In this document: positions 23,528 to 32,571 of the stretch, piece by piece
Position numbering within the stretch: the stretch's first letter is position 1
Layout: every line of letters begins with the position of its first letter
Source: Dictyostelium discoideum
Taxonomy: Eukaryota
Length of the DNA: 64,000 nt
Assembly (NCBI GenBank): GCA_000004695.1
Contig: CM000150.2
Coordinates: 1,248,001-1,312,000 of the forward strand
Reading direction: 5' to 3'
Made by a program: the position numbers and the translations under genes
Notes under the pieces: model-generated
Databases searched by the model: none
Told to the model about the DNA's origin: nothing
Seen by the model: the letters and a program-made list of their open reading frames with translations, nothing else

Positions 23528-25446
23528 TGAAATTAATATCAGTATTAATTACATTTTTATTAGCTACAGTGATTTATTCACAAAGTAAAAAAAATTTTAC
23601 AATTTGATTTTTATTAATTTTATAAACTAAATTTGAAACTAATTAGCCAAACAAATTTTTTTTTTTTTTTTTTTTTTTTTTATTTCTTTAATTTTTTTTT
23701 TAAAAAAATAAAATTAGCCAGTCCAGCAACTTTAAAATTTACTGTTCAAGTTTATGATCAATTCCCAGGTTTTAATAATAATTTTGAACCTGGATTAGGT
23801 AATGCTATTACCGGTTTAATTAAATCAACTTTAAATTCAACATCGCGTGTACCTGAATTGGTTTCAACAGAAGCTCGTATTGTTAAAAATATTAATGGTG
23901 GGATTATAAACCCATCATTATTCCCATACTTTTTCAGTCCACAACAAGATTCAAGTTTACCAGGTCAAAATTCACCATTAAGTCTTGATTTAATTTTCAC
24001 ATATGATACAACTAGAAAAATTTATGTTTATGATAATCAAAACTTTTTCCCAAGTAAGTAAATAAATTATAATAATTTTATTTTTTAAAAATTTTAATAT
24101 TGATTAAATTTTAATTTAATATTATAGTTGATAATCAAGGTTTTGATGTTGATCCAGCAAAAAGAATTTATTTAAATGAGAAAAAAACATATCATAATTA
24201 TCATTTTTGTATGAAAATGAATACTGTTTTTACTTATAAAGGTTATGAAGTATTTAATTTCCGAGGTGATGATGATGTTTGGTAAGTAATTATTTAAAAA
24301 AAAATATATTTTAAATAATTAATAATATTAACATGATTTTTATTTTATTTTTTATTATTTTAATTATTATTATTTTTTTTATTTTTTTTATTTTTAAAAA
24401 AAAAGGGTATTTATTAATAATAAATTAGTTATTGACCTTGGTGGTTTACATAGTCCAATTGGTACAAGTGTAGATACAATGACTTTAGGTTTAACAATTG
24501 GTAATTCTTATAATTTTGATCTATTCTTTTGTGAACGTCATACTGGTAAGTTTTATTATTTTTTATTTTTTTTTTAAAAAAAAGGTAATTTTATTTTATT
24601 TTATAAATATTTATAAAAATTATTTTTTTAGTTGGTAGCACAATTAAAATTGAAACCAATTTATTATTTTATTGTCCATTTAAAGATTATTGTGGAGTTT
24701 GTCAAGGTGATGGTAGTTCATGTTGTAATCCATTAACAACTTGTAATGATAATAATCAATGTACAATTGATTCATGTCCATCAGCAAATACAATTATTGG
24801 TCCAGGTTCAATCCCTAATTATTGTTTTCATACACCAAAAATTAATACAAATCCAATTGATATTTGTTTCAATTATCAATGTAATTCATCAACTGGTAAT
24901 TTCGATCCAATTCCAATTCCATGTCTTGATAGAAGTTCTGAATGTTTATCAACAATTGGTTGTAATTCTACTGTTGGTTGTCAATATGAAAGTATTTGTA
25001 ATTCAAATGTTTGTAATATTCAAAATCAATGCTCATCAAATGGTACTTGTGTTCCAAAATCATCAAATGACTGTGGAATTGAATTAGATGGTCAAGTTGA
25101 TAAATGTAAAATTTATTCATGTGATTCAAATGGAGGTGTTGGTTGTATTAAAGAAGATAAATGTAAACCAAGTAGTAATCCATGTATTTCAACTCAATGT
25201 AATGCTACTAACGGTCAATGTTATGAAACTCAAATTCCAGGTGATATTTGTGATTGTGGTTGTGGTATTCCAGAAAATAAATGTAAAGTATCATGGTGTA
25301 CACCAGAAGGTATTTGTCAACCAAAATTCAAATCTGAAATTGATGATAATAACTCTTGTACATTAGATTCATGCGATCCATGTACTGGTATTATCTCTCA
25401 TATGACCGCACCACAATGTTTAAGTTGTAATCAATGTTCAAATTAA
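23528..25446 (+). CDS. psi-family secreted protein (PA14 domain plus Dictyostelium-type Cys-rich repeats), copy A, 5 exons (approx 23528..23585, 23718..24056, 24128..24281, 24407..24548, 24641..25446)
   Basis: It has a signal peptide ([19 protein letters not shown]). Exons 2-4 carry PA14-like motifs ([53 protein letters not shown]). The last exon holds about 10 Cys-rich repeats (C.IDSC..., CNS..C, ...[17 protein letters not shown]...). All introns are phase-consistent GTAAGT..AG. It resembles the PsiA-like family; no specific member is assigned. Confidence 0.65.
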
Positions 25447-25640
25447 TTTTTAAAAAATAAAATAAAAATGAGAAATAATTAAAATAATTAAAACAAATAA
25501 ACATTAAAATGATATTTAGGTTTTAAATTTAAATTCTAAAATCACTATTAATTCTAACAATTTTAATCATTTTTATTTTTTTAAATATTTTTAAAAATTA
25601 AAACCATAATTAATAATTATTTTTTTAATTAAATAATATT

Positions 25641-25870
25641 TAACAAGATGTGACAAGAATTGAAATTTTTGGCACAATTTGGTCAAGTCACTAATTAAAG
25701 TTACCCCATCATGATATTTTTTAGGTGAGATGTGGGGTGGGATTGAATTAAGGGTTGTAAGACAGTTTTTTTTTTTTTTTTAATTTGATGGTTTTTTTTT
25801 TTTTTAACTTAAACTTTTTTTTTTAAGTTGGGAAACCCATAAGTGGGAAAAAAAAAAATTAAGAAAAAAA
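25641..25870 (+). promoter_or_regulatory. Conserved non-coding block with a G-box-like core (gagatgtggggtgggattgaattaagggttgtaag), about 140-370 bp upstream of psi copy B. It is duplicated at 31071..31260 upstream of copy D
   Basis: The block runs about 90% identical to 31071..31260 (tgtgacaagaattgaaattttt...gtcaagtcactaattaaagttacc[c/t]catcatga...gagatgtgggg[t/a]ggg[a/g]ttgaatta[a/t]gggttgtaaga). This G-rich island sits in otherwise poly-A/T DNA. G-box/CA-rich elements bound by GBF are established activators of post-aggregative Dictyostelium genes. A truncated third copy of the 5' part lies at 27561..27620. Confidence 0.4.
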
Positions 25871-25941
25871 ATAAAAAAAAAAAAAAAAAATTGATAATAA
25901 TTAAATTATTTTAAATTGGTTTATTTAAAGCACAGTGATAG

Positions 25942-25974
<33 letters not shown>

Positions 25975-29559: not shown

Positions 29560-29600
<41 letters not shown>

Positions 29601-30869
29601 AGTATTAATTTTTTATTTATTATTATAACTATTTTTAATTTTATTTTTTTATTTTAAAAGGGTATTTATTAATAACAAATTAGTTATTGATCTTGGTGGT
29701 GTACATGGTCCATTAGCTGCAAGTGTTGATGCAACAACATTAGGTTTAACAATTGGTAATTCTTATAATTTTGATTTATTCTTTTGTGAACGTCAAACTG
29801 GTAAGTTTTATTATTTTTTATTTTTTTTAAAAAAAAAAACCTATTAATTTATTTTATTAATTTTTTTATTTAATTTTTTTTTTTTTAAAAAAAAGTTGGT
29901 AGTACAATTAAAATTGAAACCAATTTATTATTTGTTTGTCCATTTGAAGATTATTGTGGAGTTTGTCAAGGTGATGGTAGTTCATGTTGTAATCCATTAA
30001 CAACTTGTAATGATAATAATCAATGTACAATTGATTCATGTCCACCAGCAAACACAACTATTGGTTCAGGTTCAATCTCTGATTATTGTATTCATACACC
30101 AAAAATTAATACAAATCCAATTGATATTTGTTTCAATTATCAATGTAATTCATCAACTGGTAATTTCGATCCAATTCCAATTCCATGTCTTGATAGAAGT
30201 TCTGAATGTTTATCAACAATTGGTTGTAATTCTACTGTTGGTTGTCAATATGAAAGTATTTGTAATTCAAATGTTTGTAATATTCAAAATCAATGTTCAT
30301 CAAATGGTACTTGTGTTCCAAAATCATCAAATGACTGTGGAATTGAATTAGATGGTCAAGTTGATAAATGTAAAATTTATTCATGTGATTCAAATGGAGG
30401 TGTTGGTTGTATTAAAGAAGATAAATGTAAACCAAGTGAAGATAAATGTCATGTCGTATCATGTGATTCATTAACTGGTTCATGTATTACAACTCCACTC
30501 GAAGATCCATTAGCTGGTTTACATTTATGTTCAATTGCACGTTGTAATTCATCAACTGGTGAATTTACATATGATCCAATTATTTGTACACCAAGTAGTA
30601 ATCCATGTATTTCAACTCAATGTAATGCTACTAACGGTCAATGTTATGAAACTCAAATTCCAGGTGATATTTGTGATTGTGGTTGTGGTATTCCAGAAAA
30701 TAAATGTAAAGTATCATGGTGTACACCAGAAGGTATTTGTCAACCAAAATTCAAATCTGAAATTGATGATAATAACTCTTGTACATTAGATTCATGCGAT
30801 CCATGTACTGGTATTATCTCTCATATGACCGCACCACAATGTTTAAGTTGTAATCAATGTTCAAATTAA
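28791..30869 (+). CDS. psi-family PA14 plus Cys-repeat protein, copy C, 5 exons (approx 28791..28848, 28964..29290, 29401..29553, 29662..29803, 29897..30869). It has one extra 57-codon Cys-repeat unit relative to copy A
   Basis: Over the last three exons it is near-identical to copy A (ORFs 24746..25087 and 30010..30351 differ at only 2 of 113 residues). Exon 2 is much more diverged, which suggests gene conversion of the 3' part. Extra in-frame segment 30430..30600 ([17 protein letters not shown]...[14 protein letters not shown]) is inserted between CKPS and SNPCISTQC compared with copy A. Confidence 0.65.
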
Positions 30870-31377
30870 TATTTTAAAAAAAAATAAATAAAAATAAGAA
30901 ATTATTAAAATAATTAAAACAAATAAAAATTAAAATGATATTTGAATTTGAAATTTAATTTTTAATTTCATAATTTAATTTACTAATTATTTTTTACAAT
31001 TTTAATTATTTTTATTTTTTTAATAATTTTAAATATTTATTAATTAAAAAAAATTTAACAAGATGTGACAAGAATTGAAATTTTTGTTCACTTGGGACAA
31101 TTTGTTCAAGTCACTAATTAAAGTTACCTCATCATGACCTTTTTTGTGTGAGATGTGGGGAGGGGTTGAATTATGGGTTGTAAGATATTTATTTTTTTTT
31201 TTTTAACTTGATGTTTTTTTAAACTAAATTTTGGAAATCCATATGTAAGAAAAAAAAATAATAATTAAATTTATTTAGTATAGAAAAATTTTATTTTAAA
31301 TTGATTTATTTAAAGCAAAAAAAAAAAAAAAAAAAAAAAATTAAATTTATTTATATTAAACTAAATAATATTTATAA

Positions 31378-32571
31378 TGAAATTATCAGTATTATATTTT
31401 TATTATCTACAGTGATTTTTTCACAAGGTATAGTTTTACAATTTTATTTTTTAAAAATTATTTTTAAAATTATTACTGCTCTTTAACTAATTTTTTTTTT
31501 TGTTTTTTTTTTTTAGCTTATCAAGACATTTTAACATTTAATGTTGAACTTTATGATCAATTCCCAGGTTATAATAATAATTTCCAAACTAATGGAACTG
31601 GTGGTAGAGTTACTGGTTTAGTTAAATCAACTTTAAATTCAACAACTCGTGTACCTGAATTAGTTTCGACATCAATTGGTTCAAATGATGCAGGTCATAT
31701 TTTGAATCCGTCATTATTCCAATACTTTTTTACTCCACAATTTGATTCAAGTTTACTAGGTGACAATTATCCATATGATTTTGAATTAGTTTTAAAATAT
31801 GATAAAAATAGAAATACATATGTTTATAATAATGAAAACTTTTTCCCTAGTAAGGAAATAAATTTTAATTTTTAAAAAAATACAAATTCAAAATATTAAT
31901 AAAATAATATAGTTGATGGTCGAGGTTTTGATATTGACCAAAAAAAAAGAATTTTTTTTAATGGTACTATATATCATAATTATCATTTTTGTATGAAAAT
32001 GAACTCTGCTTTTACTTATCAAGGTTCAGAACTTTTTAATCTCCAAACTGACCATGAAGTTTGGTAAGTAATTATTAAAAAAAAAAATTAAAAAATTAAA
32101 AAATTATTTATAAAAAATATTTTAATTAATATTAATAAAATTTTTTTTTTTTTTATTTTTGATTATTTTTGTTACTATTTATTTTACTATTTGTAATTTT
32201 TTTTTTTTTTAAAAAAAAAAGGGTACTTATTAATGAAAAATTAGTTATTGATCTTGGTGGTATCCATGAAATTTGATGATACACCAATCCAATGTACAAT
32301 CAAATTTCATTTCACTTACCAAACTAATGGAGCTTGTGGTAGAGTTACTGGTTAATTAAATCAACTGGTGAATTTACATACAAGTAATCCATATATTTCG
32401 ATCCAATGTCATTCTACCAATGGCCAATGTATTAATACTCAAATTCCAGGTGATATTTGTGATTGTGGTTGTATAACAGAAAATAAATGTAAAGTATCAT
32501 GGTGTACACCAGAAGGAATTTTTGAACCAAAATTCATATCTGAAATTTCAATTTCCATAAAGAATAAATAA
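31378..32571 (+). pseudogene. Decayed psi-family copy D. It has a frameshifted signal-peptide exon, a mutated donor (GTAAGG), an in-frame stop after ..[10 protein letters not shown], and internal deletions joining PA14 fragments directly to the last Cys repeats
   Basis: atgaaattatcagtattatatttttattatctacagtgattttttcacaag has small deletions relative to copies A to C and gives a stop after 12 codons. Exons 2-3 are still recognisable ([46 protein letters not shown]; [51 protein letters not shown]). Exon 4 hits TGA. What follows is scrambled fragments (..TNGACGRVTG*, then [43 protein letters not shown]) that match the last repeats of copy C. Confidence 0.6.

Follow-up and report, generated by a model that had tools for sequence, protein, structure and literature searches.

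Duplication, exon-limited gene conversion and lineage-specific decay in the psiE–psiS–psiB gene array of Dictyostelium discoideum

The psi family of Dictyostelium comprises secreted or exposed, matrix-type signal proteins, and PsiA, PsiF/DicA1 and PsiN are members that act as signals (PMC4931340, PMC3325183, PMC12821622). PsiA is a prespore-cell-inducing factor, PsiF/DicA1 is a quorum-sensing factor, and the names psiA to psiS are in use in UniProt. Here we describe a tandem array of psi genes in a 64-kb window of the Dictyostelium discoideum genome (contig CM000150.2, positions 1,248,001 to 1,312,000 of the forward strand; coordinates below are those of the window). The array consists of four PA14-containing copies, A to D, which lie head-to-tail on the + strand at 23527–32571 and adjoin hsp90. 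By sequence look-up, copies A, B and C are identical to the UniProt/RefSeq entries psiE, psiS and psiB of D. discoideum AX4, and the array lies on chromosome 1. Their likeness to the family lies in a predicted signal peptide, a PA14 domain and the Cys-rich Dicty_CTDC repeats; psiS differs in lacking the Cys-rich region that the characterised psi members carry. These genes are already annotated and named, and the phenomenon is a standard one with nothing new in kind. The locus is very probably best described as the annotated psiE–psiS–psiB cluster together with one short copy that is dead and what remains of a fifth, evolving by duplication, conversion, deletion and decay. Birth-and-death evolution combined with concerted evolution is supported at the array.

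Bacterial fibro-slime proteins (TIGR02148, often PEP-CTERM) carry the same domain that is present end to end in psiE, psiS and psiB. Hundreds of such relatives were found, at ~250 amino acids (aa) and 33–48% identity, and psiS has the same stand-alone size. The bacterial proteins have a PEP-CTERM anchor, whereas the psi genes encode a Cys-rich stalk (in the long members), contain spliceosomal introns and are eukaryotic. Fungal PA14 adhesins (Flo, Epa and Cea1) likewise join a PA14-type lectin head to a repetitive stalk, and recombination between paralogues and changes in repeat number are known in these families. The psiS structural model described below matches the A-domains of Cea1A and Epa9A, but the structural match is weak (template modelling score, TM, of 0.3), the psi stalk is Cys-rich and the fungal one Ser/Thr-rich, and the likeness is one of architecture and modelled fold. 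The elements of the general birth-and-death and concerted evolution model, namely tandem duplicates, pseudogenes, lineage-specific losses and conversion tracts covering part of a gene, are all found at the psi locus. Its peculiarities are the alternation of long and short genes and the limitation of conversion to one long exon. The tgrB1/tgrC1 locus (PMC12745789) is likewise a family of exposed proteins, present in these same genomes, in which duplication and exchange bring about fast evolution. Whereas tgr genes are hyperpolymorphic and serve allorecognition, the psi cluster is moderately diverged, with a ratio of nonsynonymous to synonymous divergence (dN/dS) of 0.15–0.57, and is homogenised rather than diversified.

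The region is extremely AT-rich (11–29% GC), and gene models with GT-AG introns give five exons per copy. Copy A, psiE (Q55FQ6; 23527–25446, + strand), has exons at 23527–23584, 23718–24053, 24128–24281, 24406–24545 and 24632–25446; it is intact and encodes 500 aa with a predicted signal peptide, a PA14/fibro-slime domain and a Cys-rich Dicty_CTDC region that is one 53-aa unit short. Copy B, psiS (Q55FQ5; 26009–27386, +), has exons at 26009–26072, 26189–26524, 26588–26738, 26940–27079 and 27274–27386, and its open frame of 267 aa includes a predicted signal peptide and a complete PA14/fibro-slime domain, without the Cys-rich region. Copy C, psiB (Q55FQ4; 28791–30869, +), is intact and encodes 552 aa from exons at 28791–28848, 28956–29291, 29401–29551, 29661–29800 and 29896–30869. 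Spacing between units is ~2.5–2.8 kb, and a strong higher-order period of 5264–5426 bp is present (repeat families D12, D13 and D17–D20). A tblastn search of the 64-kb window with A and C as queries gave no psi-family match outside 23527–32547. An earlier sequence-only reading of this stretch had recognised four head-to-tail genes of psi type (PA14 plus Cys repeats) within about 9 kb, with A and C intact. The two full-length models, the domain matches and the exact psi identities agree with that description, the array being far more than a chance pattern, and its start moves from 23528 to 23527. The same reading had spoken of several 3′ exons, where the models have a single one, exon 5.

All three proteins pass the curated Pfam cut-off for PA14 (PF07691), with E-values of 5e-16 for A, 2e-12 for B and 9e-14 for C. 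Dicty_CTDC (PF00526) is above its cut-off in A and C only; B and the body of D end at the sequence GDGSSC. The NCBIfam fibro-slime model TIGR02148 scores 112–129 bits in psiE, psiS and psiB against a cut-off of 45, and model positions 1–88 or 1–89 of 90 are covered in each. The N-terminus, read by eye, is hydrophobic and begins MKL(I/L), and residues 3–18 are helical in the AlphaFold (AF2) model of psiS. That model has a predicted local distance difference test score (pLDDT) of 80.7 and a predicted TM-score (pTM) of 0.78. Its best matches in the PDB are PA14 carbohydrate-binding domains, at low TM-scores of 0.24–0.33: the insert of the K. marxianus beta-glucosidase, a Marinomonas adhesin, Cea1A and Epa9A. 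Most likely, the Psi proteins of this array are secreted and have a PA14/fibro-slime beta-sandwich of carbohydrate-binding type, to which the long members add a Cys-rich stalk. A word-indexed homology search with psiS did not return psiB or psiE among its relatives. In the literature, searches on psiB, psiE and psiS met mostly other meanings of 'psi' and gave no paper specific to these genes.

Four other GenBank assemblies were reached via psiS-related proteins: L001 (GCA_054883475.1), L002 (GCA_054859355.1), L003 (GCA_054859205.1, 'D. cf. discoideum') and L004 (GCA_054859385.1). They probably come from the Nanopore-plus-Illumina project of PMC12745789. With the window they represent four lineages, AX4 (with L001), L002, L004 and L003, from which 15 units were aligned. 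L001 is collinear with the window, and the 9.7 kb at 23300–32990 differ by 2 substitutions and by homopolymer-length indels. L002 and L004 are diverged, with a synonymous divergence (dS) of ~0.09–0.13 in exons, and have the same four-copy layout. L003 has three copies: by their sequence, X2 and X3 are the orthologues of psiE and psiB, and X1 is extra and degenerate. After X2, at ~14560–14640 of L003, lies a relic of a short-type exon 1 with its predicted signal peptide and GT donor, with no further exons of a short gene. Since only this relic remains, the short gene has been deleted in L003; no D copy is present there either.

The state of each copy differs between these lineages. In AX4, psiE is intact but shortened, psiS and psiB are intact and D is dead; in L002 all four copies are open. 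In L004, A is frameshifted by a 7-nt deletion, B and D carry stop codons (TTA→TAA and CAA→TAG, respectively) that arose by substitution, and only psiB is intact. In L003, X1 is degenerate, the psiE and psiB orthologues are intact and the short gene is gone. psiB alone is intact throughout the four lineages, and its dN/dS (0.15–0.23 against its orthologues) is the lowest. Individual copies would thus decay or be deleted independently in each lineage, psiB alone being kept everywhere. The sequence-only reading had seen turnover in the functional, truncated and dead copies that stand side by side in the window, and had proposed a comparison with other isolates. That comparison, made here with L001–L004, agrees: the layout is shared and the fates differ, with different copies dead, deleted or extra depending on the lineage. 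For Dictyostelium, the locus is a clear worked example of different copies being dead in different lineages.

The short gene psiS departs from the long genes at a precise point. Its homology to A and C ends between 27365 and 27366, directly after GDGSSC, and a stop codon follows 21 nt later. The sequence that replaces the Cys-rich part of exon 5 (27366–27545, +) supplies the C-terminal tail AGGRIK and its stop codon and ends in an A-run. The breakpoint, after GGTAGTTCTTGT, and the same following sequence are common to five copies: B of AX4 and both B and D of L002 and of L004. Because both are shared, the truncation predates the B/D duplication as well as the split of the lineages. The new tail is conserved, reading AGGRIK in AX4 and ASGRIK in P0011 before the stop. 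Our model for the origin of the short, PA14-only type is that exon 5 of an ancestral long gene would have been broken after GDGSSC and joined to unrelated sequence. GC content is 33% over 27366–27506 against ~15% in neighbouring spacers. A 5′-truncated retroelement with a poly(A) tail was considered as a possible origin of this sequence, but A-runs are found everywhere in the genome. A tblastn search of 27387–28790 with A and C gave no hidden Cys-rich exons downstream of B, which makes such exons unlikely, and the open reading frames (ORFs) there are of low complexity.

Compared with its positional orthologues, psiS has a dN/dS of 0.40, which is below 1 (Z-test p=0.007, Fisher p=0.002). Two lineages that lie a dS of ~0.125 apart both retain the psiS ORF, every splice site and the new C-terminal tail. 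Judged by its substitutions, psiS has evolved under purifying selection and is not simply a dying copy, and we lean slightly towards a functional, PA14-only product. The strongest alternative is that psiS is a non-functional remnant whose frame is open by chance, so that the array has just two working genes. We regard this as a serious possibility, if the lesser one. It would account for the absence of the whole Cys-rich region and of psiS from the proteome supplement searched. It would also fit the loss of psiS in two of the four lineages, through a stop codon in L004 and a deletion that has left only the exon-1 relic in L003, from which psiS must be considered dispensable. Against it stand the frame, splice sites and tail preserved over that divergence, the low dN/dS (p about 0.002–0.007) and the complete PA14/fibro-slime domain, the same domain with which many bacterial relatives stand alone at ~250 aa. 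With purifying selection on psiS as the preferred reading, the gene offers a worked example of a truncated, PA14-only copy that is still under constraint; if psiS is functional, short PA14-only proteins may modulate Psi-type extracellular signalling or adhesion. A more specific proposal, which we consider doubtful, is that the alternation of long and short genes is no by-product of decay and that short psiS-type genes form a maintained secreted class, for instance soluble competitors or decoys for the ligand to which the long, stalk-bearing Psi proteins bind. This class would be co-duplicated with the long genes as a functional two-gene unit, and exon-5 conversion would keep the stalk uniform as the ligand-binding N-terminal half diverges.

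When the four copies of the window are compared with one another, exon 1, introns 1 and 2 and exon 3 pair A with C and B with D. In intron 2, for example, identity is 95% between B and D versus 74% between A and C. Homology extends to the spacers that follow A and C. Because of these resemblances, parsimony points to an array built by duplication of a unit that holds two genes, a long and a short one. The ~5.3 kb long-plus-short unit would have been duplicated in tandem at least once, giving the order long-short-long-short-(long).

The two long genes of the window differ in length by 159 bp (53 aa, six cysteines), which are present in psiB at 30431–30589 (+), flanked by the 7-bp direct repeat ACCAAGT, and are missing from psiE at the junction between 25166 and 25167. 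The 159-bp unit is present in copies A_FIW, A_FIR, X2, C_FIW, C_FIR and X3, and partly in the relic that follows copy D. Its carriers comprise the psiE orthologues of L002, L004 and L003 and all psiB orthologues; it is absent only from psiE of the AX4 lineage. Since every other full-length copy has the unit, the indel is a deletion in AX4 psiE and not an insertion in psiB. Nine of the 12 exon-5 differences between A and C are private to AX4 psiE, which fits relaxed or altered constraint on this gene. In the AX4 lineage, psiE would thus have undergone a 159-bp deletion between two copies of ACCAAGT and acquired several amino-acid changes of its own. This makes psiE a worked example of a dated, lineage-specific, in-frame deletion.

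Copy D (31377–32268, +) is a dead short-type, psiS-like gene without a product, with lesions in exons 1, 2 and 4. Its ATG is at 31377, and exon 1 is 7 nt short, which results in a frameshift and a TGA at codon 13. Exon 2 (31517–31849) is 3 nt short, exon 3 is at 31913–32063, and exon 4, which starts at 32222, is broken after 47 nt and followed by a premature TGA after 32268. The dN/dS of the D lineage is about 0.7 (0.73) and not significantly below 1. In L002, exon 5 of the D copy is complete and of the short type, with a stop codon and 'foreign' sequence of its own. About 220 nt past it, at 9545–9830 of L002, an exon-2-like piece is joined to the end of a 159-bp unit and to the last Cys repeats. 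The same relic is found in AX4 at ~32269–32571 (+; repeat families D17 and D18), where the interval between D exon 4 and the relic has been lost. Because the D copy of L002 ends itself before the relic, the stretch that had been read as a single copy D is a dead short gene followed by the relic of a fifth, long-type copy.

From AX4 alone, a different history can be read: C is longer by one repeat-like unit between short direct repeats, B ends at the start of the Cys region, and D has a frameshift and a stop. In that history, which follows the sequence-only reading, A and C are recent conversion partners, C has gained an extra 171-bp unit by unequal crossing-over, B has just been truncated by a foreign insertion and D has decayed by internal deletions. 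As a whole, this history is improbable. The unit measures 159 bp and was lost by A, since it is found in the relic and in every orthologue of psiE and psiB; five copies from three lineages have the breakpoint of B in common, and constraint acts on psiS; and in L002 the D copy has a short-type exon 5 of its own ahead of the relic. Parts of the earlier description remain valid. B does contain the PA14 domain, does end where the Cys repeats should begin and is followed by foreign, GC-containing sequence, but the truncation is old and shared rather than fresh. D is indeed a pseudogene with a frameshifted signal peptide and a premature stop, and its 3′ part has to be reassigned to a further copy.

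We return to psiE and psiB, whose similarity is uneven along the gene. At the nucleotide level, exons 1 to 5 of A and C are 98.3%, 85.9%, 98.6%, 89.3% and 98.5% identical, respectively (815 nt for exon 5), and their introns 72–81%. Quartets of two paralogues in two lineages were evaluated by counting the informative sites that group sequences by strain against those that group them by orthology. For exon 5 these strain:orthology counts are 15:2 for AX4 versus L002, 12:3 for AX4 versus L004, 20:1 for AX4 versus L003 and 30:1 for L002 versus L003. For exons 1, 2 and 4 plus all four introns, AX4 versus L002 gives 3:72, and the contrast between exon 5 and the other segments is highly significant (Fisher p=1.6e-12). 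Synonymous divergence tells the same story: the A–C dS of exon 5 is 0.019, those of exons 2 and 4 are 0.226 and 0.227, respectively, and orthologous exons 5 differ by a dS of 0.084–0.090. Exon 3 has an A–C dS of 0, and its informative sites (2:1) are too few to decide. Within exon 5, the initial 195 nt contain 11 of the 12 A–C substitutions and the other 620 nt a single one, and identity drops to ~84% just past the stop codon. The latest conversion tract spans 24827–25461 (+) on the psiE side, with its partner at ~30091–30884 (repeat family D12).

Gene conversion between psiE and psiB is thus real, confined to exon 5 and repeated independently in each lineage, and the locus can serve as a worked example of conversion confined to a single long exon. 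The sequence-only reading had proposed a recent A/C conversion from a diverged exon 2 and near-identical 3′ sequence, and had suggested aligning the copies to map the tracts; both the contrast (85.9% versus 98.5%) and the conversion are confirmed by the alignments, with the limitation to exon 5 added. The ORFs at 24746–25087 and 30010–30351 that it cited do have the stated 2 differences in 113 residues, but neither follows the reading frame of the gene, in which the same span has 6 differences. Mechanistically, the restriction to exon 5 would reflect a need for long uninterrupted homology: the other exons measure 58–336 bp and are parted by indel-rich AT introns. The long exon 5 would be homogenised repeatedly within each lineage, while exons 1, 2 and 4 and the AT-rich introns evolve independently.

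Could exon 5 be similar only through very strong purifying selection that extends to synonymous sites? Exons are far more similar than introns, and even exon 3, a short exon between diverged introns, reaches 98.6% identity, as would be expected in that case. Selection, however, cannot give both paralogues 12–30 common strain-specific states per comparison while the orthologues differ, and the synonymous sites of exon 5 do change (dS of 0.09 between orthologues versus 0.019 between paralogues). Selection without conversion is therefore very unlikely; because both paralogues share strain-specific states, conversion has to be invoked in addition to any purifying selection. A duplicated or collapsed contig, named in the sequence-only reading as a possible cause of the A/C near-identity, has nothing in its favour except the high exon-5 identity and can be set aside, because the independent same-lineage assembly L001 reproduces the whole 9.7-kb array with 2 substitutions, the diverged lineages share its architecture, and A and C differ by the 159-bp indel, 12 exon-5 substitutions, 14% of exon 2 and 19–28% of the introns.

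Several observations weigh against the history of duplication, conversion and constraint set out above. The dS values of the two duplicate pairs, 0.09–0.21 for B–D and 0.23 for the unconverted exons of A–C, agree only roughly, and quartets indicate that B and D have also undergone some exchange in exon 2. Quartets in the 3′ flank (7:7:5) are uninformative on the 3′ boundary of conversion. BLAST searches of the window and of 74 kb of fetched loci found copies of the sequence that follows psiS only behind B- and D-type genes and did not identify its source. An isolated indel, for example the 7-nt loss in A of L004, may be a sequencing error, the assemblies being presumably Nanopore-plus-Illumina. 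Finally, the published supplements searched, one of them a proteome supplement, contain no expression or protein entry for psiE, psiS, psiB or D, so that 'functional', as applied to these copies, refers to ORF integrity and dN/dS only.

We also note several features of the spacers and of the surrounding sequence. A GC-containing island of ~135 nt lies in the psiE–psiS spacer (25636–25770, no strand assigned) and is repeated after psiB at 31053–31193, with 85% identity. The same island follows the psiE and psiB orthologues in L002, L004 and L003, and its first ~19 nt recur after psiS (27557–27576). Neither the island nor the sequence that follows psiS is a known RNA, since a tRNA scan of the window, an Rfam scan at gathering thresholds and a further Rfam scan of 25440–28800 at E≤1 gave no match. 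In the psiS–psiB spacer, a direct repeat of ~55 nt (28155–28215 and 28293–28342; GGACGGTTTTTTTTTT...AAATTAAATCAC) is 84% identical between its two copies and is found in L002 and L004 as well.

Automatic annotations fuse neighbouring members of the array: a 769-aa model joins psiB to D, and a 770-aa model joins A to B (L001 10751–14525; L004 1934–5813). We flag these fused psiB+D and A+B models as annotation errors in recent assemblies. Upstream of the array, the ORF at 20854–22701 and sequence further upstream belong to a gene for a large protein of EGF/ComC type. Its AX4 annotation is that of a 1023-aa leucine-rich repeat protein, and L001 and L003 have the gene at the same position. In an obsolete 1480-aa model, this upstream ComC/leucine-rich repeat gene is joined to psiE, and because of this fusion the 90% cluster of psiE holds unrelated leucine-rich repeat proteins of 1023–1067 aa.

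On the other side, the array lies just upstream of hsp90, which is on the opposite strand (ORF 32990–34918). The hsp90 block is inverted in L004 (12007–15198) relative to AX4 (window 32784–36000), L001 and L002. The ~200 nt at window positions 32784–32990, which contain internal direct repeats, are present in L004 in four copies that lie on either side of hsp90 and in either orientation, and this arrangement suggests that the inversion was mediated by inverted repeats.

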